Below are positions 22,947-40,110 of a stretch of DNA of 64,000 nucleotides, in pieces. The DNA comes from Candidatus Aminicenantes bacterium. GTDB taxonomy: Bacteria > Acidobacteriota > Aminicenantia > Aminicenantales > JAFGBC01. Numbering within the stretch: position 1 is the first letter of the stretch; each line of letters opens with the position of its first letter. The stretch is from positions 2,560,001 through 2,624,000 of the forward strand of contig OY969696.1 of NCBI GenBank assembly GCA_963702005.1, written 5' to 3'. A program made the position numbers and the translations under genes. The notes under the pieces are model-generated. The model was not told the origin of the DNA, did no database searches, and was given only the letters and a program-made list of their open reading frames with translations.

Positions 22947-22975
22947 AGCATAAGGACCGGCTTGGTAGGTGTCAA
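22947..22975 (-). promoter_or_regulatory. sigma70 promoter of collar gene 3
   Basis: TTGACA-17bp-TATGCT. Confidence 0.65.
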
Positions 22976-23062
22976 GGACGGCGGGAAGAGAGGCCGGGAC
23001 AGGATATTCTCAAGTTGCACGAAACAATAAAATCGCATATATTTTTAGAGCTTCGACCGGGT

Positions 23063-23094
23063 GCCGGAGTGGCGGAACTGGCAGACGCGCTGGA
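23063..23094 (+). pseudogene. Truncated 5' fragment of tRNA-Leu
   Basis: GCCGGAGTGGCGGAACTGGCAGACGCGCTGGA matches 25012-25043 with one mismatch, and about 90 bp of upstream sequence is also duplicated; no T-arm follows. Confidence 0.85.
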
Positions 23095-23211
23095 ATAAAA
23101 ATTCCTTCGTCGTTGATGCGGGGCGATGGCGAAAATTTATTTATTCAAGGCCCGGGCCGGAAAATCCGGGCGATTCTGAGCGCAAGCGGGACGAAATTAA
23201 AAGGGGGGATT

Positions 23212-23841: not shown

Positions 23842-24178
23842 CGCTTTCCCTCCTTATATATAGAGATATTTTTGAAATTGGACCCATTTTCCGCAAGCCG
23901 GGATGTCCGAAGGCGGCAGCTTGCGAAGAGCCATAGCTTTCAAAAACGGCACAGAACTATTTCTCCGTTTTGCTAAAACCAACCCCGATATAAATATGTT
24001 ATATACTCAGCTGATGATCGAAATCAACAAAAGACAAATACCTCATTCGGACCGTTTTTGGTAATGCTTATCCGTTTACCGAAATTGCCCTCCTTCTTGG
24101 GAACGGGGATTAGCGTCACCTTGAGCAATCGTTCCCCCTTGGGGCGACGCAGATGAATAAAGTGGGGTTGTCCTTCGT

Positions 24179-24805
24179 TCATCTCACCTTGATGATGAAA
24201 TTCACGGCCGCGTTCTTGGGGCGGGATTCTTCTCCCGCCTTGATTTCTGAGCTGGTTTTGTATTTTATTGCGCCGAATAATTCCGGTTGGGCCCATGTCG
24301 TGGTTCGAGCGCCTTCAGTAGCCCAGGCGAACAAATAATCATTACCTAAATCTGCTTTAGCGTAGCCATCATAATGTTGATAATTATGGTTATGTCGATT
24401 CTGATAGTGCGAATGCTCTTGAATGGAATCCTCTTGCACCGAGCCGACGCCTGTCGCGCTGCCGCCGGGATTGGAAGGCTTCCGCTTTTTCACATCGGGG
24501 TCGCGGCCCGTCCCGCCATCATCACCCCGAAGGAACCTCCCCCTTAGGTCAGGCAGGTTGAATTTATCGCCGGAACTTCCCCACGAGGTTCCGATGGCAG
24601 CGAAAAGGTCTTTATAGACTGTTTTGTTTAGCGCTCTGCCGTTGCACAACATCCAGCTCGTCGGGATGGAGCTTGTCTCCCCGCCCCAAGCGATGATGGT
24701 GCCCACGGGCAGCGAATTGTCCGTCGCCCTTGTTGGGGCCATGATACCCACCGCGCCCACAGCCGACAACATTGATAGAACGCCGGCCAATGCTAAGTTC
24801 TTCAT
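24179..24805 (-). CDS. Secreted phage tail-collar domain protein, copy 5
   Basis: Same motifs; HSH..HNH. Confidence 0.88.
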   Translation of the reverse strand: MKNLALAGVLSMLSAVGAVGIMAPTRATDNSLPVGTIIAWGGETSSIPTSWMLCNGRALNKTVYKDLFAAIGTSWGSSGDKFNLPDLRGRFLRGDDGGTGRDPDVKKRKPSNPGGSATGVGSVQEDSIQEHSHYQNRHNHNYQHYDGYAKADLGNDYLFAWATEGARTTTWAQPELFGAIKYKTSSEIKAGEESRPKNAAVNFIIKVR

Positions 24806-25121: not shown

Positions 25122-26177
25122 ATGAACTTTGCGCGGGTCGCGCTGGCGGCCGCGGCGTTTTGCGCCGCCTGCGCCACGGCGAGCGCGCCCGCGGCGGCGC
25201 CCAAGGGCCCGCTCCCTGCCTTCCAGAAAGGGATCGCCTACACCGGCTATTCGAGCGGAGCCTACGAGGGCGAGGGAGCGCGCCGGGCCGTGAAGGACCT
25301 AGCGGCGACGAACGCTCGCTGGATCCAGGTCCTCGTCACGGGCTATCAAGACACGATCAAGTCCACCTTTATAACCCGGACGGGGAAAGAGACGCCTACG
25401 GACTCTTCCCTGACCGGGATCATCCGCTACGCCAAAAGCCTCGGCCTGAAGGTTTTTCTGAAGCCCCACGTCGACCTTCTCCTCGACCCCACCCGCTGGA
25501 GGGGGGAGATCGGCCTGGGATTCACGGAAGCGGAGTGGGATCTCTGGTTCTTGTCCTACCGGGCTTTCCTAGTCCATTATGCCCTCATGGCCGAGAGCTT
25601 GGGCGTGGAAATGTTCTGCGCCGGCTGCGAGCTCGATTCGACCGTCGGCCGCGTCGAGGATTGGCGCCGGACGATCGGCGCCGTTCGGACCGTTTACAAA
25701 GGCCGATTGACCTACGCCGACGATCAGATCGAGCAAGATCCGGATGCCGTCCAGTGGTGGAACGCCCTGGACTTCATTGGCATGGACGCCTACCCGACGC
25801 TGACCGACAAGCTCCATCCGACCGTCGAAGACTTCAGCTCGGGCTGGTCCCGCTACATCGCGGAGCTGCGCGCGCTCGCGCGCCGATGGCGGAAGCCCCT
25901 GATCCTGACCGAGATCGGCTACCGGAGCGTCCAGGGCGGCGCCCAGAATCCCTGGGATTGGCAGCGTACGGGGCCGGTCGATCTGGAGGTCCAGGCCAAC
26001 GCCTATGAGGCGGCTTTCGGGGCGGTCCAGGGAGAGGATTGGCTCCGGGGCATGTATTGGTGGCAGTGGTCGCCCGACCCGGACGAGGGCGGGACCGGTG
26101 ACACCGGATATACCCCTCACGGCAAGCCGGCCGAGAAGGTCCTGACGGCCCGTTATAAACGGGCCTTCCTGCGATAG
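25122..26177 (+). CDS. GH113-family glycoside hydrolase (TIM barrel), exported
   Basis: LKVFLKPHV, WRGEI, GCEL, LTYA, LDFIGMDAY, LTEIGYRS, G.YWWQW. Confidence 0.8.
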   Translation: MNFARVALAAAAFCAACATASAPAAAPKGPLPAFQKGIAYTGYSSGAYEGEGARRAVKDLAATNARWIQVLVTGYQDTIKSTFITRTGKETPTDSSLTGIIRYAKSLGLKVFLKPHVDLLLDPTRWRGEIGLGFTEAEWDLWFLSYRAFLVHYALMAESLGVEMFCAGCELDSTVGRVEDWRRTIGAVRTVYKGRLTYADDQIEQDPDAVQWWNALDFIGMDAYPTLTDKLHPTVEDFSSGWSRYIAELRALARRWRKPLILTEIGYRSVQGGAQNPWDWQRTGPVDLEVQANAYEAAFGAVQGEDWLRGMYWWQWSPDPDEGGTGDTGYTPHGKPAEKVLTARYKRAFLR

Positions 26178-26192
26178 CCGAGGAGGTTTCGG

Positions 26193-27290
26193 ATGAAGGC
26201 CAGGAGCGCTAGGCTTCTATCCCTCGACGCGTTTCGCGGGCTGACGATCGCGTTCATGATCCTCGTCAACAATCCCGGGAGCTGGGACCACGTCTACTGG
26301 CCGCTGAAACATGCCGCCTGGCACGGCTGGACGCCGACCGACCTGATCTTTCCCTTTTTCCTGTTCATCGTCGGCGTCGCCATCCCCCTGGCCCTGGGCC
26401 GGCGCAAGGACGAGGGCATCCCGGCCGCCGGCCTCTACGGCAAGATCTTTTCCCGGACGTTCATCATCTTCGGGCTGGGGCTCCTCCTCAATTTCGTGCC
26501 CAAGTTCAACCTGCCCGCGCTCAGGATTCCGGGAGTCCTCCAGAGAATCGCAATCTGTTATCTCGTCGCCTCCCTTCTCTATCTCAGGGGCGGCTGGAAG
26601 GGGAGGGCGCTGGCCGCTTTCCTGCTCATGGCCGTCTATTGGCTGGCCATGAAGCTCATCCCCGTCCCGGGCTTCGGGGCGGGCGACCTGAGCCAGGCCG
26701 GAAACGTGTGCGGCTTCATCGACCGGACCCTGATGGGGGGCCATCTCTACCTTCCGGGCTTCGACCCGGAAGGAGTGCTCAGCACGCTGCCGGCCGTCGC
26801 CTCGACCCTGCTGGGCGTCCTGACGGGAGAGTGGTTGAAGTCGCGCTTGTCCCTGATGACCAAATGGGCCGGGCTGTGGGTCGCGGGGACGTTCCTGGCC
26901 GCGGCCGGGATCTTCCTCCATCCCCTGATCCCGATCAACAAGCAGCTCTGGACGCCGAGCTTCGTCCTGTTCACGGCCGGGGCGGCCATGCTCCTGTTCG
27001 GCGCTTGCTATCTCGTCATCGACGGAATCCGGTTCAAAGTCTGGGCCGTTCCGTTCCTCGTCTTAGGGACGAATGCCATCGTCATCTATGCCGGTTCGTC
27101 CCTGATGACCAAGATCATCCAAACGGTCGCGGTCGGCGGCACGTCGTTGAAGGCCTGGATCTACGGCCATGTCTTCGTTCCGGCGGCGGGTCCGCTCAAC
27201 GGTTCGCTGGCCTTCGCGATCGTCTTCGTCCTGTTCTGGCTGGCCGTCGCCCTTCCGTTCTACGTCAAGAAAATCTTCATCAAGATCTGA
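26193..27290 (+). CDS. HGSNAT / NagX-like (DUF5009) membrane acyltransferase-transporter
   Basis: [49 protein letters not shown]. Confidence 0.87.
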
Positions 27291-27306
27291 ATCCAAGGAG
27301 GTTGCC

Positions 27307-27561
27307 GTGTCGGAAAAATCGAAACTCGTGACTTTCCTGTTCTGCTGGGTGCTGGGCGTTTTCGGCGGACACCGCTTCTACGTCGGGAAAATCGGAACGG
27401 GAGTCATCTGGCTCTTGACCTTGGGGGTCTTCGGCATCGGGGTGCTGGTCGACCTGATCATGATCCTGACCGGCTCTTTCACAGACGCCAAGAATGTCCC
27501 GGTCACGGCCTGGATGACGGCCAAAGACGCCCAGGGTAACGTCCTTCACTATCTGGTTTGA
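27307..27561 (+). CDS. TM2-domain membrane protein
   Basis: KSK......[15 protein letters not shown]...L.TLG.FGIG...DLI; GTG start with RBS AAGGAGG. Confidence 0.85.
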
Positions 27562-27613: not shown

Positions 27614-27961
27614 ATGCTGATCAGAAAACGGACACAGGGCGATGTCGTGATCATCGACATCGAGGGCGAGATCCAGCGATCCGACATCACGGACGTGACT
27701 CTCCATCAGGTCGTCAAGGACCATCTCGAGACGGGCTGCCGCAACATCCTCCTCAACCTGGAGAAGGTCCGCTTCATCGACAGCTTTGGCGTGGGCGAGA
27801 TCCTGGCCAGCTTCATCTCGACCCAGAACCTGGGCGGAAAATTCAAGATGGCCCGGATTTCCAAGAAGCTGTTTCTCATCTTCGACGTCACGATGCTGAC
27901 GCGCGTCCTGGAGATTTTCGATACCGAGGAGTCCGCTCTCCAGAGCTTCCCCAAGGCCTGA
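27614..27961 (+). CDS. STAS-domain anti-sigma factor antagonist
   Basis: 115 aa; ILLNLEKVRFIDSFGVG phospho-Ser motif. Confidence 0.88.
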   Translation: MLIRKRTQGDVVIIDIEGEIQRSDITDVTLHQVVKDHLETGCRNILLNLEKVRFIDSFGVGEILASFISTQNLGGKFKMARISKKLFLIFDVTMLTRVLEIFDTEESALQSFPKA

Positions 27962-27995
27962 GCCCTCGGGGTGAAGGGAAGGGCCCGATCCCCCT

Positions 27996-30527
27996 TTGAA
28001 AGCCTCGCGTTTCGACCGCCTCCTGATCCGGGTCGCCGACATCCGGCCCGCCGAACGTCCGTTCGCGGTCCTGTTTTTCCTGTACTTCTTCCTGATCACG
28101 TTTCCGGCCTACATCATCAAGCCCGTCAAGCTCTCCCTTCTCCTTCGCTCGTTCAAGGCCGGGGACCTTCCTTACGCCTATCTCCTGTCGGCCGTGTTGA
28201 TCGGGTTCGTGGCTACGCTCAACGCCCGCCTCCTCGAGCGGCTTCCGCGCCGGCGCTACCAGGCCGGAACCATCCTGTTCTTCATGTCCAACCTCGTCCT
28301 GTTTTGGTTCCTGCTCAAGTCCCATTGGCCGGGTCTGAGCTTGATCTACTGGTTTTGGTCGGACGTTTTCATCGCGACGACCGTGACCCAGTTCTGGATC
28401 GGCTTCCACGACGTCTTCCATCCCCACCAAGCCAAGCGGCTCATCGGGTTTCTGGTCAGCGGAGGCCTGCTGGGCGGGATCTGCGGGTCGCTTTTAGCCG
28501 GGTGGCTGGCTCGGCTCATCGGCACCGAAAACCTTCTCCTTGTCTGTCCGGCCGTCTTGGCCGGAACCTTCGTCGTCATCGAAGCCCTCCATCGCCAGCG
28601 GGCGAAAGCCCCGGCCGGGGGCGGGGCGCGCGATCAGATCCCGGATAAGCGGCCGCCGGTCTCCACCCGTGCCCTGGAGGGATTCCGGCTCCTCCGCAGC
28701 AGCCGCTACTTGTCCCTCCTGGCCGGAGTCCTGGTCTTGGCGGTCGTCGTCGGGACCCTTATCGAGCTCCAGTTCAACACGATCCTCCAAGCCTTCGTCA
28801 AGGACAAGGACGCCAGGACGGCCTTCATCGCCACCTTCTTCGCCATCCTGCTCATCATCTCCTACCTGTTCCAGGTGTTCGTGTCCGGGCCGATCCTGAG
28901 GCGCTTCGGCATCAAGACCGCCCTCGTCATCGGACCCGTCCTTCTGCTGGCCGGCGCCTTCTCCATTTTCATCGTTCCGGCCGGGGCCCTCATCGCTTGG
29001 GCCGTCGCGGCCCGCGGGACCGATAAGGGCATGGACAACACACTCAACCAGTCCGTCCGGGAGCTGCTCTACATTCCGGTCCCGGCCGGCATCAAGTACA
29101 AGGCGAAGCTCTTTATCGACATGTTCGTGACCAAGTTCGCGAACGGCATCGGAGCGCTCCTCTTTCTGGTCACTTTCACGGGCCTCCACTGGTCGGTCCG
29201 CAAGGTCAGCTTCCTGAGCCTGGCCCTGATCGCCGTCTGGTTCGTCCTCGTCAGGCTCATCCACTTGGAGTATATCCGTGTCGTCAAGCAGGACCTCGAA
29301 CGGCGCTGGGAAGACGGGCACAGGCTCGTCGCCGAACGGGTCGACCTGGACATGACCCGGCTCATCTTCGACACGATCCAAAGTCGGGAAAAAAGTTCCT
29401 CGCTATACCTGATGAACCTGTTTGACCTGGTCGGGAAGGAGAAGCTGACCCCGGAGCTCAAAAAGCTTATCGCCTCCCAGGCCGAGGAGTACCGCCTCAG
29501 GACCCTGGATTCCGTCCTCGATGTCGGAGCCGAAGCGTCCGGCCTGGAGGTCGGTGACATCTTCGAGGACGCGGATTGGCAGAGGAATATCCGGGAGATC
29601 CTCGAGCTCGATTCCTACCGTAAGGTCATGGACGAATACCTCAAGCAAACCTTGTCCGGATCGAAACGGGCCGATGAGATATCCCGCATGGAGGCGGCCA
29701 AGCTCCTGGGGCTGCGCGGACCGTCGCCGGCCGCCGTCCGCGGTTTGAAGGCCCTCCTGGCCGATCCCTCGGCCGAGGTCCTGAACTACGCCCTCGGCAG
29801 CGCCGCCCGGCTCCAAAGGAAAGAGCTGCTGCCCGTCGTCATCGGCCACCTGGCTAATCCCCAGATCCGCCAGGTCGCCGCCGACGCCCTGGTCGCTCAC
29901 GGCGAGAAGGCCCTGCCCGTCCTGAAAGCCCATTTGGAGGACGGCCGCCGGAACCTCGAACTTCGGCGCACCCTTCCCGACATACTGGCCAGAATCGGCA
30001 CGCCCAAGGCCGCCGACATCCTGCTCGGAGAGCTCGATAAAAAGATGACGGAGATCCTGGAGGCCGAGATCATCGAGGCTCTTTTCCGCTTGAAATTGAA
30101 AAATCCCGATATTCGTTTCCGCGAGAAGCGGGTCTTCCCGCTCGTCCTGGACCAGATCCGGCAGTCTTGCCGGCTTTTCCTGGACCTCTGTTCGGCCAAG
30201 ACCGAATCCTCCTGCCCCGACGTCCGATCCGACGTACGGATGGCGCTGGCCCTCAAGAGGATCTTCGAGCTCTTGAGCCTCGTCTATCCGATCGAGGATG
30301 TCGTCCGGGCCTACCAGAACCTTCTGACCGGGACCGAGCGTTCGGCCGATTATTCTCTGGAACTCCTCGACAACATCCTCAACAAGGAGATCCGGGACGG
30401 TCTGGCCCCGCTGGTCGAAGCCTGGCCGACCGAGGAAAGGATCCGGCGCTGCCGGAAGTTTTTAGCCGGGTCCCGGCCCGGACGCCGGGAGGGGGCTTCC
30501 CCTCCGAAGGTGACTCGGATAGAATGA
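27996..30527 (+). CDS. NTT/TLC (Npt1/Npt2) nucleotide translocase fused to HEAT repeats
   Basis: YIIKPVK, QFW..F.DVF....AKRL, RELLYIPVP...KYKAK.FID; C-terminal helical HEAT-like repeats. Confidence 0.85.
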   Translation: MKASRFDRLLIRVADIRPAERPFAVLFFLYFFLITFPAYIIKPVKLSLLLRSFKAGDLPYAYLLSAVLIGFVATLNARLLERLPRRRYQAGTILFFMSNLVLFWFLLKSHWPGLSLIYWFWSDVFIATTVTQFWIGFHDVFHPHQAKRLIGFLVSGGLLGGICGSLLAGWLARLIGTENLLLVCPAVLAGTFVVIEALHRQRAKAPAGGGARDQIPDKRPPVSTRALEGFRLLRSSRYLSLLAGVLVLAVVVGTLIELQFNTILQAFVKDKDARTAFIATFFAILLIISYLFQVFVSGPILRRFGIKTALVIGPVLLLAGAFSIFIVPAGALIAWAVAARGTDKGMDNTLNQSVRELLYIPVPAGIKYKAKLFIDMFVTKFANGIGALLFLVTFTGLHWSVRKVSFLSLALIAVWFVLVRLIHLEYIRVVKQDLERRWEDGHRLVAERVDLDMTRLIFDTIQSREKSSSLYLMNLFDLVGKEKLTPELKKLIASQAEEYRLRTLDSVLDVGAEASGLEVGDIFEDADWQRNIREILELDSYRKVMDEYLKQTLSGSKRADEISRMEAAKLLGLRGPSPAAVRGLKALLADPSAEVLNYALGSAARLQRKELLPVVIGHLANPQIRQVAADALVAHGEKALPVLKAHLEDGRRNLELRRTLPDILARIGTPKAADILLGELDKKMTEILEAEIIEALFRLKLKNPDIRFREKRVFPLVLDQIRQSCRLFLDLCSAKTESSCPDVRSDVRMALALKRIFELLSLVYPIEDVVRAYQNLLTGTERSADYSLELLDNILNKEIRDGLAPLVEAWPTEERIRRCRKFLAGSRPGRREGASPPKVTRIE

Positions 30528-30542
30528 AAAAAGGGAAATGCC

Positions 30543-32219
30543 ATGTCTGACCTGTTCATTTATCCCAAGGACGGCGAACCTTTCGCCTTTGTGGCCGAGA
30601 AGGATCGGACCCTGATCGGCCGGGCTCCGGACAACGACCTGCCCTTGACGGACCAGTTCTGCTCCTCCCATCATGCCGCGATCCTGCGCCGCGGAGAAAA
30701 ATTTACGGTCGTCGATTCGAGCAGCAAGAACGGAACCTTCGTCAACGGCCTCAAGATCCAGCAGGAGACCGAACTCGCCAACGGGGATGAGATCCTGGTC
30801 GGCATGACCCGCCTCATCTTCGGCAAGAAGCCGCTCTCCCATGTCGAGCTCGTCGACGCCGGACCCCTGGCCGAGAACATCAACACGATCGTCAACGTCC
30901 GGGATATCCTCAAGGAAAGCGCCGTCGATACGATAACCCGGAAGCCGGACACCGCCCTCGACCCCGAAGCACTCCAGCGCGAACAGAAGGTCCTCCGCGT
31001 CCTCAACGAAGTCAGCCAATCCCTCATCTACCACATGCCGATGGCCGAACTCCTGTCCCACATCATGGACCTCATCACCGAGAACATCAGGATGGACAGG
31101 GCCGTTCTCCTGCTCAGGGAGGGCAATCCGCCCCATCTCGTTCCCCGGGTCATCCGGATTCCGAACCGGGACATGAAGGACCAGAGCGTCCGGATCAGCC
31201 AGAGCATCGTCCGGACGGCCCTCGAAAAGAACTCGGCCGTCCTCGTCTCCGACATCCAATCGGACACCCAGTTCCGCTCCCAGGCCAGCATCATCCAGTC
31301 CAGAATCCATTCGGCCCTGTGCGTCCCGCTCTGGAACAACAAGGAGATCATCGGGCTCGTCTACGGCGACCGGATTTCGCTTCTGGAGCCGTTCCGATCC
31401 GAAGACATGAAACTCCTGACCTTCCTGGCCAACCTGGCCGCTATCAAGATCGAGAACGCCCGGCTTTTCGACCAGGCCCTGGAGAGGAGCCGCCTCGACC
31501 GGGAGCTGAGCCTGGCCGTTCAAATCCAGAGGAATTTTTTGCCCAAGGAAAGCCCGATCCCGGACGCCTTCGACATCTGGGGGACGAACTTTTGCTGCTG
31601 CAAGGTCGGCGGCGACTACTACGATTTTATCCCGACCGGCCCCGGCTCGGTCGGCCTGGCCATCGCCGATGTCTCGGGAAGCGGGGTTGGAGCGGCCCTG
31701 CTGATGGCCTCGCTGCGGGCCGCCCTCCACTCCGAGATCCATCCCGGCGTCGATCCCTCGGCCATGGCGGCCAAGCTCAATGAGTTTGTCTACCGCAGCT
31801 CGGAAAGCGACACCTTCATCTCCTTCTTCTTCGGAGATCTCGACAAATCGATCGGGGAGCTCCGCTACGTCAATGCCGGCCACAACGCGCCCGTCCTGGT
31901 CCGGGCCTCGGGCGCCGTCCAGCGCCTGCCCCGCCTGGGCTATTGTCTGGGCATGTTCCCGGGGGCGGAGTTTGAAGTCGGGACGGTCCGGTTCGAGCCC
32001 GGGGACAGGCTGTGTCTGTACACGGACGGGATAACCGAGAGCCGCAACCAGGATCGGGAGGAATACGGTGAAGAGCGGCTGATCGGACTCCTCAAGGCGA
32101 ACCCGGACGAAAGCGCCCGGGAGACGGGGGAGCGGATCGTGGCCGATGTCAAGGCTTTCTCTCTATGCGACGACCCGGAGGACGATATGACGATCGTGGT
32201 CGTTAAGAGGAAGGCCTGA
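30543..32219 (+). CDS. FHA-GAF-SpoIIE (PP2C) phosphatase, RsbU-like
   Basis: IGR..DNDL, SSHHA, SKNGTFVNG (FHA); SALCVPL (GAF); VGGDYYD, ADVSG.G, NAGH, YTDG, DDMT. Confidence 0.92.
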   Translation: MSDLFIYPKDGEPFAFVAEKDRTLIGRAPDNDLPLTDQFCSSHHAAILRRGEKFTVVDSSSKNGTFVNGLKIQQETELANGDEILVGMTRLIFGKKPLSHVELVDAGPLAENINTIVNVRDILKESAVDTITRKPDTALDPEALQREQKVLRVLNEVSQSLIYHMPMAELLSHIMDLITENIRMDRAVLLLREGNPPHLVPRVIRIPNRDMKDQSVRISQSIVRTALEKNSAVLVSDIQSDTQFRSQASIIQSRIHSALCVPLWNNKEIIGLVYGDRISLLEPFRSEDMKLLTFLANLAAIKIENARLFDQALERSRLDRELSLAVQIQRNFLPKESPIPDAFDIWGTNFCCCKVGGDYYDFIPTGPGSVGLAIADVSGSGVGAALLMASLRAALHSEIHPGVDPSAMAAKLNEFVYRSSESDTFISFFFGDLDKSIGELRYVNAGHNAPVLVRASGAVQRLPRLGYCLGMFPGAEFEVGTVRFEPGDRLCLYTDGITESRNQDREEYGEERLIGLLKANPDESARETGERIVADVKAFSLCDDPEDDMTIVVVKRKA

Positions 32220-32242
32220 GGAAGCCCGAGGACGGGTGCGGC

Positions 32243-32683
32243 ATGGGACGGGCTATCGAGCGGATCAAGGTCCTGGCGGATCTCGGGGACGTCGACCGGG
32301 TCCGGAACGTCCTCAGAAACGCGCTCGAGCGCTGGGGCGTCGACGAAGAGGACGGCTTCAAGATCGAGCTGTCCCTTTATGAAGTCTGCATCAATATCAT
32401 TCTCTACGCCTATCCGGGAGGCCGCGGCGAGATCGATGTCCGCCTCTGGATGGAGGGAAACCGGTTCCATCTCGAGGTCCGGGACACCGGCCTGCCCTTC
32501 GACCCCCGGAGCCTCGCCCCGCCGGACATCCGCGAGAATATCAGGACGGGGAAGAAGGGCGGCTTGGGCGTCTACCTGGTCCGAACCCTGATGGACGGTT
32601 TTTCCTACCGGCGCGAGAAGGAAACCAACGTCCTGACGGTTACCAAAACCCTGAGGCCGAGGAAACCCTCCTCTACGAGCTAA
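32243..32683 (+). CDS. RsbW/SpoIIAB-like anti-sigma Ser kinase
   Basis: E.C.NII.YAY, RDTG.PFDP, GGLGVYLV..LMD. Confidence 0.88.
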   Translation: MGRAIERIKVLADLGDVDRVRNVLRNALERWGVDEEDGFKIELSLYEVCINIILYAYPGGRGEIDVRLWMEGNRFHLEVRDTGLPFDPRSLAPPDIRENIRTGKKGGLGVYLVRTLMDGFSYRREKETNVLTVTKTLRPRKPSSTS

Positions 32684-32713
32684 AAGACTGCGCGGCCCCT
32701 CCCTGCTTTTCGG

Positions 32714-33547
32714 TCAGTAAAGAACGTTGGCCTCCCCGTTTTCCTTGATCAGGCGGTCGACCTCGGCCAGGATGAGGTCGCGGCGGATGAGCACGGCGTT
32801 GATCTCCTCGTCGCTGAGATACTCCCCGACGGCCGCCCGGATCGTGTCGAAGGTCAGGCCCTTGAGCTTATCGACGAAGGCCCGGGGGAGCTCCTTCATG
32901 AGCTTGGGGCCTTCGGGATGCTTGGCCGTATAGATAAGCTCCTTGGTAAATTTTTTTGAAGTGCGGAAGGAACGCGAGTGATCGATGAGGATCATCCGCC
33001 AGTCCGGCTGGGTGATCAGGATCTGGTTCATGTGGCGGTCCTCGTTCGCGATCAGGTTGTCGAAAGCCCGCTGGAGGTAAGTGCTCCGGTTCCAGGCAAA
33101 GACGTGGATGGGCGGCGTCTTGATCTTCTTTTCTTCTTTTTGTTTCAGGGACAGGCAATCCTCGATCCAGAGCTGGCAGGAGCCGCGGTTTTCGTGGAAG
33201 CGCCTCTCGACCGTGGGCGGGACGCGGCCGAGATCGAGAAGCTTGTCCATGAGATAGGCCGCGATCTCGAATTGCCATCCTTCGATATAGCCGGACATCC
33301 GGCCCTGGGCGTTCTTCCAAAGAGCGCGGTGGACGATGTCGCCCTTTTTAAGGGTCAACTCCCACGGGCTGGTTACAGACTCAGGACCGACCATCTGTTT
33401 ACTGGCGATGATGTCGGCCGTCCTCAGGAACTCCTCCCATTGAGGCCGTTCCGCGATCTCCTCGGGCAGGAACTGGGCCCGGAGAGCTGGGGCGACGGTT
33501 AAAAAGGCCAGCGCGATCAGGGAAAGATAAACCGGCTTTTTGTTCAT
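32714..33547 (-). CDS. Secreted atypical kinase, Fam20C/PI4K-II-like, copy 1
   Basis: Signal peptide ending ALRA; ALWK, EIAAY.MDKLL....VPPTV.R, GS.Q, FDNLIANEDRH, LIDHSRSF. Confidence 0.7.
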   Translation of the reverse strand: MNKKPVYLSLIALAFLTVAPALRAQFLPEEIAERPQWEEFLRTADIIASKQMVGPESVTSPWELTLKKGDIVHRALWKNAQGRMSGYIEGWQFEIAAYLMDKLLDLGRVPPTVERRFHENRGSCQLWIEDCLSLKQKEEKKIKTPPIHVFAWNRSTYLQRAFDNLIANEDRHMNQILITQPDWRMILIDHSRSFRTSKKFTKELIYTAKHPEGPKLMKELPRAFVDKLKGLTFDTIRAAVGEYLSDEEINAVLIRRDLILAEVDRLIKENGEANVLY

Positions 33548-33596
33548 ACTCCCTCCCTCCATCCGACGTCCATTCTATCTCCGCGGCGCCGCGGAT

Positions 33597-34418
33597 TCAA
33601 TACAGAACCTTATCCTCTCCATTGGCCCGGATCATGTCCTCGATCTCTTTGAGGACGAGGTCCTTGCGGGCCAGGACGGCCTGGATTTCCTCGTCGCTCA
33701 AGTACGGCCCCACCGCCGTCCGGACGCTTTCGAAGGTCAGGGATTTGATGCGATCCACGAAGGCGCGGGGAAGGCGGCGGAAAAGGAGGGGGCGAGGCTT
33801 AGCGCCCTGGCCGTAGAGGAGCCGATTGCTGAATTCGGGGCCTTTTCGGAAAGAGCGTGAGTGATCGATGAGAATGCTCCGCCAATCCTTGGTATAGAGC
33901 ATGTTTTGCTGGGTCCGGTCCTCGTTGGCGATGAGGCTGTCGAAGGCCCTGATCAGATATTTGGCTTTCTCGGTCCGGTCCAGGAACTCGTCGGGGATTC
34001 TTATATTATTTTCCGCGACCTTGAGAAGGCTCGTCTCGACCGTCGCCCAGAATTGAAGGGATCCTTTTTTGCCCAGGTACTCCCGTTCGACGGTCGGCGG
34101 GATCATGTCGAGTCCGAGGAGTTTATCCATCCGATAGGCCGCGATTTCGTACTGCCAGCCCTCCCAGAAGCCGAGCTGCCAGCCGCTGGGGTTCTTCCAA
34201 GCGGCCCGCTCCTCCCGGCCGTCCTTGCGGAGCGTGAGCCGAATGGGTTTGGTGACGCCCTCGGGGATATCCTCCGCCTTGACGATTTCGGCCGAGGCCA
34301 GGAAATCCTCGATGGCTTCCCTTTGAGCGATCTCCTCCGGCCTGAACTGGGCGAATGCGGCCGAGGCCAATGCCACTAGGACAATCGTAGCGGGACGTCG
34401 GATGGTTCGGAGTTTCAT
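33597..34418 (-). CDS. Secreted atypical kinase, Fam20C/PI4K-II-like, copy 2
   Basis: Signal peptide ending AFA; AAWK, EIAAYRMDKLL....IPPTVER, FDSLIANEDRT..N, LIDHSRSF; clear paralog of copy 1. Confidence 0.7.
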   Translation of the reverse strand: MKLRTIRRPATIVLVALASAAFAQFRPEEIAQREAIEDFLASAEIVKAEDIPEGVTKPIRLTLRKDGREERAAWKNPSGWQLGFWEGWQYEIAAYRMDKLLGLDMIPPTVEREYLGKKGSLQFWATVETSLLKVAENNIRIPDEFLDRTEKAKYLIRAFDSLIANEDRTQQNMLYTKDWRSILIDHSRSFRKGPEFSNRLLYGQGAKPRPLLFRRLPRAFVDRIKSLTFESVRTAVGPYLSDEEIQAVLARKDLVLKEIEDMIRANGEDKVLY

Positions 34419-34528
34419 GTCCTTCTTCCCTGGGAGAATTCGTCTGGAATCTATATAGCATATCCGAACCCGCAAATCCACCAAGTTGTGTTGACAGGGC
34501 TTTTTCGGTTGGTGTAGAGTGGTTCCTC

Positions 34529-35395
34529 GTGTTTGCCAAAAAAGCGTTCGCCGCCGTCCTCTCGCTGGTTCCCATCCTCCTGCCGGCGGCCTGCGCGCCG
34601 CGCCTCGCGCCCACGATTCTCTTTCCTTATCAATGGCCGGGGAAGCCGGGCTTCGACGGAAACATCGACCGGATTGGGATCGAGGGGCCTTCCGGTATCG
34701 TATTCCATCCCGGCCGCAACACTCTCTTCATCGTCGGGGACAAAGGTCTCATCGCCGAGATCGCTAAGGACGGCACGCCTGTCTTTAGCCAGCCCCTGCC
34801 CGGTGACCTGGAGGGGATCACGGTCGATCCGGCGACCGGGCTCTTGTATATCGTCGTCGAGGGGGACGACGTCATCCTCGAATTCGACCCGGAGCGGCGG
34901 ACCGTCCTGCGCCGTTTTCCGATCAACCGGGCCTTTGGGGGCTGTCCCGAATTTTTGGAGAAGCAGCGGGACAGGTACGACGACGGCATCGAGTCGATCG
35001 CCTGGATCGCGAACCCGTCCCATCCCGAAGGAGGAACCTTCTATATCGGGAATCAATGGGACCCGCCGGTCATCATCGAAGTCGAGGTTCCTCTCCGGTC
35101 GCGGGCGGCCGGGCCGGCCGAGGCCCGCATCGTCCGCGTCCTTCCCACTAAGATCGCCGACCCGGCCGACATGTACTACGACGCCCGGACGCGCCGCTTG
35201 AACGTCGTCTGCGACGCCGACAACATCCTTCTCGAGATCACGCTCTCCGGCCGAATCGTCGCTCAGTATGCGTTTCCCGGAGACAGTCAAGAAGGACTGG
35301 CCAGGGACGATGAAGGATACCTCTACCTGGCCCAGGATAACGGGGGGATCTTCAAGCTTAAGGATCTCAGGACCCCGGCGGCCCGCCGGAAGTGA
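34529..35395 (+). CDS. SdiA-regulated / YjiK-like beta-propeller lipoprotein
   Basis: Lipobox-like LPAAC; EGPSGI, LFIVGD.G, GDLEGIT, GIESIAW, QEGLA repeats. Confidence 0.7.
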   Translation: MFAKKAFAAVLSLVPILLPAACAPRLAPTILFPYQWPGKPGFDGNIDRIGIEGPSGIVFHPGRNTLFIVGDKGLIAEIAKDGTPVFSQPLPGDLEGITVDPATGLLYIVVEGDDVILEFDPERRTVLRRFPINRAFGGCPEFLEKQRDRYDDGIESIAWIANPSHPEGGTFYIGNQWDPPVIIEVEVPLRSRAAGPAEARIVRVLPTKIADPADMYYDARTRRLNVVCDADNILLEITLSGRIVAQYAFPGDSQEGLARDDEGYLYLAQDNGGIFKLKDLRTPAARRK

Positions 35396-36743
35396 GTTTT
35401 CTATGCTCGCGGGCGATCAGGATGCCCAGGGCGATCCAGACGGCAACGACGGCCAAGTTGAACTTGGCGAAACCCTCGATCTTGAAGGCGAAGACGCTCG
35501 TCCCTAAAAGGACGGTCAAGGCGGACAGGACGTCCCCGGACCGGTGAAAGAACGTGTCGATGGCCGCCTTGGCCTTGTATTTGGCCTCCCGTGACGTGAT
35601 CAGGAATAGGGCGTGACGCGTCGTGTTCATCAGGGAGTAGTCGGTGGCGTTCTCGACGGCCTTGGTCCATTTCACGGCCAGCAACGTTGCACCCAAGCTT
35701 ACCGCCGCGTAGCCGCCGAAGGCCAGGACGGGGAGGAAGAATAGGGCGCCTCGGACGCCGACCGCTCTGAAGATCCGGGAGACCAGGAAGAGCTGTATGA
35801 CGACGGCGAGCAGGTTGAAGACCGTGAAGAAATCCGCATAGAGCTGACCCAGGTAATCGACCGTGCTCAAGCCGCCCATCGTCCCCGCCGCCGCCGCCGC
35901 CTGGGCGGCTCGGCTGAAGACCCGGTCCAGAATGTATTGGCCATTCGTGTTGACGAGGTTCAAGACCATTATGAATAAGGCGATCAGGAGAAGGTAGCGG
36001 CTCGAGAAGAGAAGACGGAAACCTCCGCCCTTGGCGAGGGGTTTTTCTCCGAGGGCTTGGGCCTCCCGTGACTTCAGGCGGATCCGGTCGACCTCCCTGC
36101 GGTGGACGACCAGGGTCAGGAGGATACAGATGCTGAGCACGGCGCCGGCCACGATCATCATCGCGTAGCAGCCGAGCGAGGCGACCAAAACCTTGACGAT
36201 CGCGCTTCCGGTCAGGGCCCCAAAGGTCGCACCGAAGGCGATGAGAGGAAAGAGCCTTCGGCCTTCGGCTTCCGTGTAGATGTCGTTGGCGAACCCCCAG
36301 AATTGGGCGGGAAGCATGACGCTGAAAACGCCCGCCCAGACGAAGAAGGCGATCCCCATCGTGCCCAGCGGCGTCCCGAAGAGATAGAGGCCGTAGAAGA
36401 GGACGAGGTTGCTTATAAAGAAGACGAGGACGGTGGCGATGAGTTTTTGGCGGGGGACACGGGAGGCGAGATGGCTGAAGGCCTTGACGGCGAAGACGAG
36501 GACCACGGCCGTCGCGGCGGACAGGTAGCTCTTATATTCGGCGCCCTTCCCGGCGTTGATCAGGGCGTCCCGGACGGGTTTGACGATGTAGTAGCAGGTC
36601 ATAAGGAGGTAGACGTTCAGGACAAGGAGGACGGCCGTGGAGGCCTCGCCGGGATGGACTTCCGAGAACAGCCGCAGGAACCGATAGAGGGGCGGCTCGG
36701 GCTTCGGGAGCGCGGCCGACCTCTCGTTCTTTTCCAAGGTCAA
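35367..36743 (-). CDS. NTT/TLC-family nucleotide (ATP/ADP) translocase
   Basis: YYIVKPVRDAL, QFWGFANDIY....GRRLFPLI, K..E....YSL.......LF....REAKYKAKAAIDTFF.R.GD. Confidence 0.87.
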   Translation of the reverse strand: MTLEKNERSAALPKPEPPLYRFLRLFSEVHPGEASTAVLLVLNVYLLMTCYYIVKPVRDALINAGKGAEYKSYLSAATAVVLVFAVKAFSHLASRVPRQKLIATVLVFFISNLVLFYGLYLFGTPLGTMGIAFFVWAGVFSVMLPAQFWGFANDIYTEAEGRRLFPLIAFGATFGALTGSAIVKVLVASLGCYAMMIVAGAVLSICILLTLVVHRREVDRIRLKSREAQALGEKPLAKGGGFRLLFSSRYLLLIALFIMVLNLVNTNGQYILDRVFSRAAQAAAAAGTMGGLSTVDYLGQLYADFFTVFNLLAVVIQLFLVSRIFRAVGVRGALFFLPVLAFGGYAAVSLGATLLAVKWTKAVENATDYSLMNTTRHALFLITSREAKYKAKAAIDTFFHRSGDVLSALTVLLGTSVFAFKIEGFAKFNLAVVAVWIALGILIAREHRKLTSGGPPGS

Positions 36744-37564
36744 TTCCTTCCGGCCGGGGGACCGAACAGGACGGCCGCTTCGCCCTTGTCCTTGATGAGA
36801 CCTTCCAGCGCGTCCAGGATGCGTCCCGTCCTCTTCGCCATCGCCCGGAGCTCGGCGTCGTTGAGAAATGCCCCGAGGGTCGCTTGAAGCTTTTTGAGAT
36901 CAAGATGCCGCAGCGTCTCGAACAAGGCCCGGGAGCAGCGCGTGACCTCGCAGCCGGGGATCAGGGCGGGCTCGGGCGAAAACGCCTCCGAGAAATCGAC
37001 TCGGCAGATCTTCCAATTGTCCTTGTGGACGAAGGTGTCCTCCAGGTTTCCGCACTCGTTGAAGACCAGGTTTTCGAAGATTCTGATCTCGGCCAGGGCG
37101 TCCCGGAACGCCGCCGGGTCCGGAGGAGAGATCCCGCGTCTTTTCAGGTCCCTGAATTTCACGCAGTTCTCGAGGAAAAGCTGGAGCGATCCCGGCACTT
37201 CGTCGATCGTCCGCTCGACGATGGGCGGGATGATCCGGAGGCCGACGAGCTTGGACAGCCCATAGGCCGCGAGCTCGTAGTGGTAGCTGTCGGGAAGGAG
37301 GGCCGGCCGCTTCCGGTCGACGTACTTAAAAATGGCCCGGCGCTCGACGACCCCGTCGCTCAAGGTGATGATCCAGGGGGCGGTCCGGCCTCCGGCCCCG
37401 CTTTTGTCGATGGAAACGACGCGGGCCGATCCCAGGAAAGCTTCCAGGGCGGCCGGATCGGGTTCGTCCTGCGCTCTCATGCCGGCCAAGCTTAGAGCCG
37501 GAACGCACGCCCAAACGACACCGGCCAGGAGCATCCCGACTCTCAAAAACGCGCTATTATTCAT
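36740..37564 (-). CDS. Secreted pseudokinase, paralog of the 32.7-34.4 kb kinases
   Basis: Signal peptide; AIFK, YELAAY..SKL....IIPPIVER and GSLQ retained; NEDR replaced by NECG, IDHS replaced by VDFS. Confidence 0.65.
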   Translation of the reverse strand: MNNSAFLRVGMLLAGVVWACVPALSLAGMRAQDEPDPAALEAFLGSARVVSIDKSGAGGRTAPWIITLSDGVVERRAIFKYVDRKRPALLPDSYHYELAAYGLSKLVGLRIIPPIVERTIDEVPGSLQLFLENCVKFRDLKRRGISPPDPAAFRDALAEIRIFENLVFNECGNLEDTFVHKDNWKICRVDFSEAFSPEPALIPGCEVTRCSRALFETLRHLDLKKLQATLGAFLNDAELRAMAKRTGRILDALEGLIKDKGEAAVLFGPPAGRN

Positions 37565-38657
37565 CCCCCTCCCCCCAGACCGAGAATTGTCCTTTGTCTA
37601 TGATGAGGGCGCTCAGGCGGCCTCCGTAAAAATGTGTGATTCCGGTGTCGATAATCCAGATCCGCTTCTGGAACCGGCTCATATATTCCATGGCGACCGG
37701 GCTTCCGATTTGAGGGGAATGCGCGATGACCATATAATGGGCCTTCAGGTTGGCGAAGATTTGGTCGACTTCGGGGGCGAACTCGTTCTCGTCCCGTTGA
37801 GCCAGGTCCCGGTACCAGAGGGGGCCGAACCGGTCATAGATGACCTGTGGATGGAACAGACGCATGACCCGGGGACTCTTGACGGGTACGCTCAGAAAAG
37901 AAAGCTCTTCGCGGAGGACATCGTTGATCCGAGCCAGGTCCCAGGTCGAATATTTAGGGCTGACACCGCCGTGGACGAAGATGACGTCGTTGATTTTCTC
38001 TATGCAGTTTTTCTTCAAGAACCAAGGGCCGTAGTCCTCGAGAAAACCGCTGAAGTAGGCGGACTGGGCCTCCTTATCGGTCTTCATCGTTTTTGTCCAA
38101 TAGCCCGTCAGCATGGGGGAGTATTCCGGGTTGGCCTCTTTCGTCGGGCTGCCGTCGCCGATTATGCCTTTGAGGACATCCCGCTCACGGCTCTCTCGGA
38201 AGTCCCGGGGAAGGAACGACAGGAACTGCTCCAAAGTCACGAGGTCCGGATAGTCGAAAACGATGCCGATAAGGTTCAGGATCTCGTGGTTGCCGAGCAG
38301 GACATGGATTTTTCCCCCCGCTAAAGCGGCTTCGACCTCGAGTCTCATCAACAGGTCCAGGATTTTCCGGGCGTCGGGCCCTCGGTCCATAATGTCTCCG
38401 GTTTGGATCAGGTGGATCTGTCCCCCCGCCCAGTGGAGGCCTTCATCGACGAGCCCGGTCCCCTTCAGGATAGCGACGAAGTTCCCGTAGTCGCCGTGGA
38501 GGTCGCCGACGGCAACGATTTTTTCGACGCCGGTCCAAACGCAGGGTCTATCGGAAGCGCGAAGGGGGGAGAAGGCGACGGCCAGGACGAAGACAAGGAC
38601 GATGGGCAGAAAGGGTAGGCCGAGCCATCGTCTTCGGGTTTTGGGTGGTCTCGGCAT
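37557..38657 (-). CDS. Secreted metallophosphoesterase, Shewanella-like phosphatase (Shelph/PPP-type)
   Basis: GDLHGD, QTGDIMDRGPD, LLGNHE, FVHGG, GPLWYR, IDTG; N-terminal signal peptide or anchor. Confidence 0.87.
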   Translation of the reverse strand: MPRPPKTRRRWLGLPFLPIVLVFVLAVAFSPLRASDRPCVWTGVEKIVAVGDLHGDYGNFVAILKGTGLVDEGLHWAGGQIHLIQTGDIMDRGPDARKILDLLMRLEVEAALAGGKIHVLLGNHEILNLIGIVFDYPDLVTLEQFLSFLPRDFRESRERDVLKGIIGDGSPTKEANPEYSPMLTGYWTKTMKTDKEAQSAYFSGFLEDYGPWFLKKNCIEKINDVIFVHGGVSPKYSTWDLARINDVLREELSFLSVPVKSPRVMRLFHPQVIYDRFGPLWYRDLAQRDENEFAPEVDQIFANLKAHYMVIAHSPQIGSPVAMEYMSRFQKRIWIIDTGITHFYGGRLSALIIDKGQFSVWGEGDE

Positions 38658-38763
38658 CGATACTCCAAAACCCATTTATAGTAGATTGGCTGGGACAAAT
38701 CAATAGCGGTTTGATTTTCGGAACGATCGGGACGATAATGAATCTCCGTCAAAGGAGGATGCC

Positions 38764-40110
38764 ATGAAAAGAAGCTCCCGACCCGGGGGCCGTTGCTCCC
38801 GACTCGGGTGCGGACTGGCCGCGGCCGTCTTCTTGTTCCCCTCCTGCGGCGCCGGGAGCGTCCCCGGGAAGTCCCCGGCTCCCTCGAGCCCCGCCGTCCG
38901 GAACGGAATCGAGGTCTTTCTCGCCAAGCTCCCGGACTTCGTGAAGGGAAAGCGGCTTGGCCTCATTACCAACCCGACGGGCGTTGCGAGCGACCTTCGC
39001 TCCACGGTAAAGCTTCTCAAGGCCGTTCCGGGAATCAAGCTGGTCGCCCTCTACGGGCCCGAACACGGCGTCCGGGGAAACGCCCAGGCGGGCGAGAGCG
39101 TTCCGTTCTATTTCGACGAAAAGTTCGGAGTCCCCGTTTTCAGCCTTTACGGCCAATCCACGAAGCCCGCCCCCGGGATGCTCAAGAACATCGACGAATA
39201 CATGCGATCGTTCGACACCAAGGACACGGGCAAGCTCCCGGAAGCGTCCATGGTCGAGGATGTCGATATGCTCATCTACGACATCCAGGACGTCGGAACC
39301 CGGATCTATACCTATGTCGCGACCATGGCCTACGCCATGCAGGCCTGCGCCGAAAGCGGCATCGATTTCGTCGTCCTGGACCGGCCCAACCCGATCAACG
39401 GGCTGGACATGGAAGGCCCCATCCTCGAGTATCCCGCCTACAGCTCTTTCGTCGGGCTCTATCCGATACCGCTCCGCCACGGGATGACGATCGGCGAGCT
39501 GGCCCGCCTCTTCAACGACCGCTTCCTGGCCAAGAAAGCCCGATTGACCGTGGTGCCGGCCGAAGGCTGGAAGCGGGAGATGTGGTACGACGATACGGGT
39601 TTGCCCTGGGTCATTCCTTCGCCCAACATGCCCACCCTTGACACCGCCGCGGTCTATCCCGGCCAGGGCTTATTCGAAGGGACGAACGTCTCGGAGGGGC
39701 GGGGGACGACCAGGCCCTTTGAGCTCTTCGGAGCCCCTTGGGTTGACGGATTTGAGCTGGCCCGGGCCCTCAACGGCCTCGGCCTTCCCGGCGTTAAGTT
39801 CCGGGAAGCTTGGTTCACGCCGACCTTTTCCAAATTTAAGGGTCAATCCTGCGGAGGATGCCAGATCCATATCATTGATCGTACAGCCTATCGTCCCTTG
39901 GCGACGACGCTCCACATCATCCGGGTCTTGAGCGAGATGTATCCCGACCGGTTCGAATTCCACAAGGATTATTTCGACAAGGTCATGGGCACGTCCCGAG
40001 TCCGCGAGGCCCTTGAAAAGGGGACTTCCGTTCCGGCCATCTTGGAGAGCTTCAAGGCCGGCCTGGCCGAGTTCGGGAAGCTCCGTCGGCCTTACCTGCT
40101 CTATGAATAG
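38764..40110 (+). CDS. namZ: Exo-beta-N-acetylmuramidase NamZ (DUF1343)
   Basis: GLITNPTG, GPEHG.RG, DIQDVG.R.YTY, DRPNP, HGMT.GELA, PSPNMP, SEGRGT. Confidence 0.9.
   Translation: MKRSSRPGGRCSRLGCGLAAAVFLFPSCGAGSVPGKSPAPSSPAVRNGIEVFLAKLPDFVKGKRLGLITNPTGVASDLRSTVKLLKAVPGIKLVALYGPEHGVRGNAQAGESVPFYFDEKFGVPVFSLYGQSTKPAPGMLKNIDEYMRSFDTKDTGKLPEASMVEDVDMLIYDIQDVGTRIYTYVATMAYAMQACAESGIDFVVLDRPNPINGLDMEGPILEYPAYSSFVGLYPIPLRHGMTIGELARLFNDRFLAKKARLTVVPAEGWKREMWYDDTGLPWVIPSPNMPTLDTAAVYPGQGLFEGTNVSEGRGTTRPFELFGAPWVDGFELARALNGLGLPGVKFREAWFTPTFSKFKGQSCGGCQIHIIDRTAYRPLATTLHIIRVLSEMYPDRFEFHKDYFDKVMGTSRVREALEKGTSVPAILESFKAGLAEFGKLRRPYLLYE

Follow-up and report, generated by a model that had tools for sequence, protein, structure and literature searches.

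Can a bacterium phosphorylate anything outside its cytoplasm, in a periplasm that is generally taken to be without an ATP supply? This question is raised by two neighbouring genes, here called K1 and K2, in a stretch of 64,000 nucleotides from a Candidatus Aminicenantes bacterium (Acidobacteriota; GenBank assembly GCA_963702005.1, contig OY969696.1, positions 2,560,001 to 2,624,000); "the window" denotes this whole stretch, and all positions are counted from its first letter. A first-pass annotation, made from the letters alone, had described the two gene products as tandem secreted kinases with motifs like those of Fam20C. Our work identifies K1 and K2 as a new bacterial variant of the Fam20/PI4KII kinases (PI4KII: type II phosphatidylinositol 4-kinase) in a conserved gene cluster, and this cluster suggests an ATP-driven phosphorylation outside the cytoplasm. 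The two genes are:

32714-33562, minus strand: K1, a predicted exported Fam20-like kinase-fold protein of 282 amino acids with the catalytic loop NEDRH and the metal site LIDHSRSF.
33597-34418, minus strand: K2, a tandem paralog of K1, 273 amino acids counted from its ATG, with the catalytic loop NEDRT.

Both open reading frames (ORFs) are present on the minus strand where the first-pass annotation had placed them, and all the motifs that it had read as common to the two proteins are found in both translations, i. e. AQF(L/R)PEEIA after a hydrophobic N-terminus, WK, EIAAY(L/R)MDKLL.L..(V/I)PPTVER, FD(N/S)LIANEDR(H/T) and LIDHSRSF. K1 and K2 have 136/275 identities (49%, E 1e-87), a likeness that is, on sequence comparison, far beyond chance. 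K1 has a second ATG at 33547 that yields a protein of 277 amino acids; this is probably the true start, since it is preceded by a Shine-Dalgarno-like GGAGGGAGGGAG run and since the identical database protein (P0001) is 277 amino acids long. For K2, GAAGGA is located just 5' of the ATG, and an extension from a TTG to 34484 is possible. A search of the whole genome (4.31 Mb) found exactly three members of the family, K1, K2 and a third paralog, K3, all of them within the window. Scanning of the region 32200-39000 gave 4 promoter-like sites as compared to 1.3 +/- 1.0 in shuffled sequences, and 12 terminator-like sites as compared to 8.1 +/- 2.8, a result that gives no information on operon boundaries.

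To which family do these proteins belong? With K1 as the query, 3248 proteins were found at E<=0.001 among 4060 candidates, and the named matches were 'hypothetical proteins' of Candidatus Aminicenantes; among representatives of clusters at 50% identity, 1928 matched at E<=0.001 and 1019 at E<=1e-10. Profiles were needed for the more distant comparison, because single sequences gave only sub-threshold matches in Pfam, in NCBIfam and in a phmmer search of the PDB, where K1 found FAM20A at E 0.026. When compared to the PDB sequences, a family profile (A1, 81 diverse members) identified FAM20A (4.1e-13), FAM20B (6.2e-10), zebrafish Fam20C (8.5e-9) and human FAM20C (2.8e-8), followed by Fam20 of C. 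elegans (8.7e-7) and then by PI4KIIalpha (2e-6). The alignments to Fam20 comprise the alphaC and metal-site motifs as well as the catalytic loop and the helices at the C-terminus: EIAAY..DKLL....VPPTVER was aligned with the corresponding segment of FAM20A, and FDnLIaNeDR with FDFLIGNMDRH. The order of Fam20 motifs given in the first-pass annotation is thus borne out by the HMMER alignments of the alphaC and catalytic-loop motifs.

The AlphaFold2 model of K1 (mean predicted local distance difference test score (pLDDT) 92.9, predicted template modelling score 0.87) has the kinase fold on which the first-pass annotation had made its reading depend. In a Foldseek search with this model, the top ten matches were all Fam20 entries (E 8.7e-10 to 1e-8, TM(query) 0.60-0.64). 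A second search with VIA-align, which is independent of Foldseek, gave Z scores of 20.5 for Fam20C (root-mean-square deviation (rmsd) 3.3, 237 residues aligned), 20.0 for the Fam20 protein of hydra and 19.1 for that of C. elegans; PI4KIIalpha, with Z scores of 18.8 and 18.4 (224-225 residues aligned), is slightly under Fam20. Lower scores were obtained for CtkA of H. pylori (15.8), the actin-fragmin kinase (13.1), HipA (10.6-12.0) and CotH (11.3). Both searches have Fam20 as the nearest structure, and the comparison proposed at the outset came out with PI4KII next and with HipA and CotH clearly lower. CtkA, HipA and CotH share the kinase-like fold with K1, but all are clearly more distant than Fam20 and PI4KII, and K1 and K2 have neither a toxin-antitoxin nor a spore context. 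Membership in any of these three groups was rejected because of the structural scores. In the part of PMC12189002 available to us, CotH acts outside the cytoplasm, on the spore coat, and is the bacterial kinase that is usually compared with Fam20C.

The likeness of K1 and K2 to Fam20 extends to individual residues. The elements EIAA(F/Y)..D..L....PP.V.R, FD.L..N.DR and (L/I)D(N/H).R.F follow each other in the same order, and so do the residues that we take to be catalytic in Fam20, i. e. the Lys of beta3, the Glu of alphaC (EIAAF), the Asp of GNxDRH and the Asp of LDNG/LDHG. In the structural alignments, 235-237 residues correspond to Fam20 chains of 351-418 residues (rmsd 3.3, 20% identity), and the alignment reaches the C-terminal helix. 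Moreover, both groups are placed outside the cytosol (K1 and K2 by a heuristic evaluation of their N-termini), and each has a catalytically degenerate paralog, FAM20A and K3, respectively. On the other hand, K1 and K2 have about 250 residues after removal of the signal as compared to about 350-390 ordered residues in Fam20, and only the core is common to both: the extra N-terminal segment and the insertions of the full Fam20 domain are absent from K1 and K2 (whole protein 273-282 amino acids). The family is bacterial, and its partners are a PPP-family phosphatase and carriers of the nucleotide transporter (NTT) type. The degenerate paralogs differ as well: K3 lacks the catalytic Asp, whereas the pseudokinase FAM20A is inactive through a different residue. 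Among the active Fam20 proteins, FAM20C is a protein kinase and FAM20B a xylosylkinase. In the part of a paper on the Legionella kinome that was available to us, FAM20 is a eukaryote- or Metazoa-specific cluster (PMC9758233).

The type II PI4K enzymes (PI4KIIalpha/beta) are the second-best match of the profile, they are nearly tied with Fam20 in structure, and they have a catalytic loop of the DR(H/N) type. However, PI4KII is cytosolic whereas K1 and K2 are predicted to be exported, and the N-lobe of K1 and K2 with its alphaC motif (EIAAY...PPTVER) aligns with Fam20 and not with PI4KII. Based on profiles and models, we place the proteins in a separate, large and unnamed bacterial family that belongs to the Fam20/PI4KII branch and is closest, by a small margin, to Fam20; we regard the family as separate because none of the Pfam cut-offs is reached (the bit scores are given below). 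The original label 'Fam20C-like' is therefore appropriate for the resemblance in profile and structure but not for membership in the Pfam family. The cut-off of the SCO1664 family (NCBIfam TIGR03843, 172.4) is not reached either: K1 has 38.5, K2 36.8 and K3 32.7 bits. Some distant members do exceed Pfam cut-offs, i. e. P0140 (29.4 bits) and P0231 (27.2 bits) that of Fam20C, and P0231 (49.2 bits) and P0213 (30.4 bits) that of PI3_PI4_kinase. In the ESM Atlas, the automatic cluster names of the relatives are 'PI3K/PI4K catalytic domain-containing' or 'metallophosphoesterase family'.

Could K1 and K2 be active enzymes? Conservation was counted in 153 rows, i. e. K1 to K3 and 150 representatives. 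The Asp of the catalytic loop is present in 122 rows (21 gaps), the Asp of the metal site in 132 (19 gaps), the Asn of the catalytic loop in 124 and the Glu of alphaC in 112. In the orthologs of K1 and K2, the four canonical catalytic positions are nearly invariant, and the catalytic Asp is found in 80/81 K1 orthologs and in 74/74 K2 orthologs. Judged by these residues, K1 and K2 look catalytically competent. It had also been proposed that the difference between DRH in K1 and DRT in K2 reflects different substrates. The difference itself is well conserved, with H in 76/81 K1 orthologs and T in 67/74 K2 orthologs; its proposed meaning found no support, as nothing ties this position to substrate choice. 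In the wider family, the position is mostly occupied by N (78/153 rows).

Are the proteins exported? K1, K2, K3 and the phosphatase that is encoded next to K3 all begin with positive charges, after which comes a hydrophobic stretch, and in K1 and K2 this stretch is followed by A-x-A and then by Q. Using a heuristic based on hydropathy and the lipobox, we found a hydrophobic N-terminal segment in 119/120 close homologs and in 92/110 near-complete cluster representatives, and a lipobox-like motif in 34/120 close homologs; the cytoplasmic neighbours remain below the threshold of this heuristic. In forms of the family that are fused to a phosphatase, the signal-like segment directly precedes the phosphatase domain. 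The signal peptides that had been claimed for both proteins are in good agreement with these data: by the heuristic, the N-termini of K1 and K2 are Sec- or lipoprotein-like. We also considered that the N-terminal segment may anchor a cytoplasmic domain. This idea was rejected: the positive charges are on the N-terminal side of the hydrophobic stretch and acidic residues on its C-terminal side, and many of the orthologs have lipoboxes.

Most of what the cluster tells about a mechanism comes from K3, the phosphatase and two nucleotide carriers, of which the first-pass annotation had taken no account. K3 and the phosphatase extend the cluster on the same strand:

36740-37564, minus strand: K3, the third paralog, with a signal-like N-terminus and NECGN in place of NEDRH, without the catalytic Asp.
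37557-38675, minus strand: a Shelph-type phosphatase of the PPP family with an N-terminal hydrophobic signal or anchor, 372 amino acids, with GDLHGD, GDIMDRG and GNHE.

The phosphatase has the GDxHG, GDxxDRG and GNHE motifs and is homologous to the cold-active protein-tyrosine phosphatase of Shewanella (1v73/2z72, E 4.9e-29); its metal-binding and catalytic residues do not vary among 31 orthologs. There are also weak NCBIfam matches to the ApaH/PrpE hydrolases of diadenosine tetraphosphate (Ap4A) (1.4e-7 and 1.3e-4), both below the cut-off. The family name Shelph (Shewanella-like) is used here as in the part of PMC535813 that was available to us. In distinction to the known Shelph proteins, the enzyme is translationally coupled to a Fam20-like kinase domain in this genome, where the stop of its gene and the start of K3 share 8 nt, and it is fused with such a domain elsewhere. 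K3 has 30% identity to K1 (E 1.8e-26) and keeps the Lys, the Glu and the Asp of the metal site. Among its orthologs, the catalytic Asp is present in 0/58 and replaced by Cys in 48/58, and FK, YELAAY and VDFSEAF are kept. K3 may be a pseudokinase that acts as a partner of the phosphatase. In a FastTree analysis of 137 domains, one clade (39 rows, support 99) contains K1 and K2, and a second, separate one (12 rows, support 100) the K3 orthologs together with a phosphatase-fused protein.

The fusions are frequent: an N-terminal Metallophos domain precedes the kinase domain in 12/20 long family members, and the fused form has 3951 matches at E<=1e-10. The few named ones among them come from Myxococcota, Deltaproteobacteria, Acidobacteria, Terriglobia and Thermoanaerobaculia and are all labelled 'metallophosphoesterase'. 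A search for longer homologs of K1 found only 4 proteins. When the phosphatase (41-372) and K3 (33-274) were modelled as a complex, the score was 0.70 as compared to 0.18 for the best control; the 0.70 mark is reached by 116/157 solved complexes and by 2/215 mismatched pairs, a calibration that is only rough since the alignments were custom-made. Between the runs, at least 18% of the contacts are the same, with a partner pLDDT of at least 89, and in the modelled interface the N-lobe loops of K3 (54-62 and 81-92) adjoin phosphatase residues that include N129 of GNHE. The model supports the idea that the phosphatase binds K3. By analogy with FAM20A-FAM20C, K1 might in addition form a heterodimer with K2 or K3.

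Where might a kinase outside the cytoplasm obtain its nucleotide? The window encodes two candidate carriers, one of them in a string of genes for cytoplasmic switch proteins:

35367-36743, minus strand: NTT, a membrane protein of the MFS and TLC family that resembles exchangers of nucleoside triphosphates and diphosphates (NTP/NDP), 458 amino acids, PF03219 with 53.7 bits (cut-off 21).
27614-27961, plus strand: a STAS-domain protein, the first gene of the cytoplasmic switch operon, 115 amino acids, PF01740 with 42.6 bits (cut-off 22.6).
27996-30527, plus strand: NTT-HEAT, a TLC/MFS membrane domain with C-terminal HEAT repeats, 843 amino acids, PF03219 with 35.3 bits (cut-off 21).
30543-32219, plus strand: a cytoplasmic FHA-GAF-SpoIIE phosphatase of the PP2C type.
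32243-32683, plus strand: an RsbW-like HATPase_c_2 protein of the serine kinase/anti-sigma type, convergent with K1.
34529-35395, plus strand: an SdiA-regulated/phytase-like beta-propeller protein with a lipoprotein-like N-terminus, between the NTT gene and K2.

The start of the NTT gene overlaps the stop of K3 by 4 nt. NTT and NTT-HEAT are the two TLC-family genes of the genome, and both are part of this cluster. Both carriers pass PF03219, and the protein encoded at 27996-30527 has the NTT-HEAT architecture. In the part of the work of Major, Embley & Williams (2017, PMC5381601) that was available to us, this architecture, with a function yet to be assigned, is found widely among free-living bacteria, in a data set that includes Aminicenantes and Acidobacteria, and canonical NTTs take up ATP, with all characterised ones coming from parasites or organelles; that part mentions no tie to exported kinases and a phosphatase, and a search of the paper for the term 'export' found nothing. 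The genes for the STAS protein, NTT-HEAT, the FHA-GAF-PP2C phosphatase and the RsbW-like protein form one co-directional string (27614-32683, plus strand) in which no sigma factor was seen, and this is apparently a partner-switching module built around a transporter. The SdiA-regulated-like gene is not a core part of the cluster, since it is present in only 18/80 related loci.

Some further genes of the window deserve mention. A small membrane protein with a TM2 domain (27169-27561, plus strand, PF05154 with 67 bits) is encoded a short distance 5' of the STAS gene. On both sides, the cluster is bordered by genes related to glycans, i. e. those for GH113 and a DUF5009-like membrane protein (25122-27290, plus strand) and for the exo-beta-N-acetylmuramidase NamZ (38764-40110, plus strand). 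In related loci, NamZ is syntenic with the cluster in 34/80 and a glutamine-synthetase-like gene in 30/80. At 20510-24805 (minus strand), there are five tandem paralogous ORFs of 208-219 amino acids, all of which contain a Phage Tail Collar domain (PF07484, E about 1e-19), and the G+C content of this stretch is 0.53-0.58 as compared to about 0.61 elsewhere. Towards the end of the window (60001-64000), the G+C content falls to 0.48-0.50.

Is this arrangement maintained in other genomes? We inspected 80 Aminicenantes loci, with each count limited to the loci that have enough flanking sequence. K2 is located directly upstream of K1 in 64/72 loci, K3 is found upstream of K1 in 49/55 and the phosphatase in 48/55; NTT is upstream of K1 on the same strand in 45/61 loci, any TLC-family gene is present in 52/55 K1 loci, and the RsbW-like gene is convergent with K1 in 69/77. 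In a sample of the phylum, the family was detected in 75/301 genomes, with up to 8 copies per genome. A PF03219 match is present in 69/75 genomes that have the kinase as compared to 22/226 without it (these 22 include the unpublished genome G049), and among the six kinase-bearing genomes that lack such a match, two (G110 and G258) have an NTT-HEAT-like ORF beside the kinase according to a custom hidden Markov model. Of the best matches in 36 genomes of other orders, 17 have the phosphatase next to them or fused with them. Finally, as an independent sample, we used the fused form to seed contigs from metagenomes: the 30 resulting loci of at least 9 kb contain the kinase in 27 cases, the phosphatase in 27, a TLC-family gene, mostly of the size of NTT-HEAT, in 25, the kinase together with the carrier in 24 and a fusion in 5. 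In these loci, the phosphatase, the carrier and the kinase are usually consecutive and on one strand. In Acidobacteriota as well as in contigs from metagenomes, one repeatedly finds phosphatases fused with the kinase and also the phosphatase/NTT-HEAT/kinase triad. The fusions, the gene neighbourhoods and the co-occurrence give a consistent picture.

The survey gave three additional observations. The locus G046:C23 (L114, 8419-12878) has five tandem kinase-like copies after a phosphatase gene, with genes for NTT-HEAT and a PP2C phosphatase alongside, and the kinase-like family expands by tandem duplication. A family member at G082:C2:3674016-3674780 has two TGA interruptions and is probably a pseudogene. 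The gene at G212:C54:24385-25833 has a full-length PF03219 match (576 bits, E 4.6e-173), with the other matches in the phylum at 20-83 bits; by this measure, it is a canonical NTT of the ATP/ADP-translocase type.

How could the components work together? We give an even chance to a periplasmic, NTP-dependent phosphorylation that is fed by nucleotide exchange. According to this model, K1 and K2 would be exported by the Sec system to the periplasm and, as suggested by the N-termini, would be lipid-anchored in many orthologs. There, they may bind a nucleotide and a divalent metal via the Lys of WK, the Glu of EIAAY, the Asn and Asp of NEDR and the Asp of IDHSR; the conservation of these residues points to activity. 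The phosphate would be transferred to an extracytoplasmic substrate, most likely a protein. The nucleotide may be supplied across the inner membrane by NTT, NTT-HEAT or both, acting as NTP/NDP exchangers; the linkage of the genes is observed, and substrate and direction are proposed here. The exported phosphatase, in complex with K3, may reverse or edit the modification, a role that would fit with the fusions that were seen and with the complex model that passes. Finally, the gene order suggests that the cytoplasmic STAS/RsbW-like/FHA-GAF-PP2C module might gate the nucleotide supply via NTT-HEAT. It is tempting to speculate that all this forms a self-contained extracytoplasmic system, in which NTT and NTT-HEAT would run in reverse as compared to the NTTs of parasites (ATP out, ADP in) to fuel the Fam20-like kinases in the periplasm, the Shelph phosphatase held by the pseudokinase would erase the mark, and the STAS/RsbW/PP2C switch would gate the ATP. 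We consider this complete version possible, with doubt prevailing.

Several findings weigh against our interpretation. The evaluation of the signals relied on the hydropathy and lipobox heuristic instead of a trained predictor. K1 and K2 fail to reach the cut-offs of three Pfam families, i. e. Fam20C (PF06702, 13.8/13.3 as compared to 26.8 bits, with no match for K3), PI3_PI4_kinase (PF00454, 15.8/12.7 as compared to 27.1 bits) and HipA_2 (PF20613, 16.8/18.2 as compared to 27 bits). Among the 81 profile members, weak Pfam matches (E<=0.01) are to PI3_PI4_kinase in 38 cases (best 2e-7), to HipA_2 in 25, to Fam20C in 7 and to FAM198 in 7; with PI4KIIalpha less than 2 Z units from Fam20, the proteins may have the affinity of lipid kinases. 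At the position of the presumed ATP-binding Lys, only 95/153 rows have K (18 have R and 17 have Q, with 16 gaps). The export of nucleotides by NTT is what we infer for a protein far below the exchanger cut-off: for the NTP/NDP exchangers (NCBIfam TIGR00769, cut-off 387.2), NTT has 61.9 and NTT-HEAT 44.9 bits. The linkage is not universal: a TLC-family gene is adjacent in 9/36 loci of other orders (the phosphatase is present in each of these nine), and in five complete or near-complete genomes, 5/11 TLC-family genes are within 5 kb of a family member (2/2 in G000, 2/2 in G112, 1/3 in G002, 0/2 in G190 and 0/2 in G082). Moreover, the counts overstate the support, because related genomes are not independent.

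The closeness to PI4KII bears directly on the substrate. With the same architecture and nucleotide supply, the phosphate acceptor of K1 and K2 might be the head group of a lipid, lipopolysaccharide, peptidoglycan or a different glycan of the envelope at the outer face of the inner membrane, just as FAM20B phosphorylates xylose and PI4KII a lipid. PI4KIIalpha is nearly as close to K1 as Fam20 is (Z 18.8 as compared to 19.1-20.5), PI3_PI4_kinase is the commonest of the weak Pfam matches, the sugar kinase FAM20B is second in the profile search, the lipoprotein-like forms among the close homologs (34/120) would be held at the membrane, and the genes for NamZ, GH113 and the DUF5009-like protein are nearby. 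However, the partner that is conserved, and in many cases fused, is a PPP enzyme with a protein-tyrosine phosphatase as its nearest solved relative, and the glycan genes are outside the conserved three-gene module of the metagenome loci. We regard a lipid or glycan substrate as rather unlikely.

The carriers and the phosphatase could also be seen from the side of nucleotide uptake: the metallophosphoesterase would process extracellular nucleotides or dinucleoside polyphosphates, the NTTs would import the products, and the kinase-fold proteins would bind or modify nucleotides. Such a scavenging system would be in line with the ATP uptake described for the canonical NTTs of parasites and organelles (in the part of PMC5381601 cited above), with the ApaH/PrpE matches of the phosphatase and with K3, which keeps nucleotide-binding residues in the absence of the catalytic Asp. 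The conservation of the catalytic Asp, the Asn and the metal-site Asp in K1, K2 and most of the family argues for phosphotransfer instead, and a kinase would be of no use in a compartment that lacks a phosphate donor. In addition, the best solved relative of the phosphatase is a protein phosphatase, with a far stronger match than those to ApaH. Scavenging thus seems improbable to us. It is even harder to believe that K1 and K2 perform another chemistry such as AMPylation, or that they only bind, as regulators or scaffolds of the phosphatase. Pseudokinases and kinase-fold enzymes of other chemistry do exist in this branch, the top sequence match is the pseudokinase FAM20A, the Lys position varies across the family, and K3 demonstrates that the fold tolerates the loss of the catalytic Asp; yet, the orthologs of K1 and K2 have all four canonical positions almost throughout, and the Asp was lost only in the phosphatase-linked K3 clade.

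A literature search, from which subscription journals were largely excluded, found no description of bacterial Fam20-like kinases, of periplasmic kinases or of a link of Shelph phosphatases or NTTs with kinases. Each component is either a small soluble domain or a single membrane protein, amenable to expression and assay, and the cluster offers a testable route to ATP-dependent phosphorylation outside the bacterial cytoplasm, to the role of NTT-HEAT and to the origin of the kinases of the secretory pathway. To our knowledge, the working assumption has been that the bacterial periplasm has no ATP-driven kinases. If our model is true, the ATP-exporting system would overturn this assumption, and a function would be assigned to the NTT-HEAT family of free-living bacteria. 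Shelph phosphatases are also present in the endoplasmic reticulum of some protists, and the module would then be a candidate ancestor of these enzymes as well as of the lumenal Fam20 kinases of eukaryotes.

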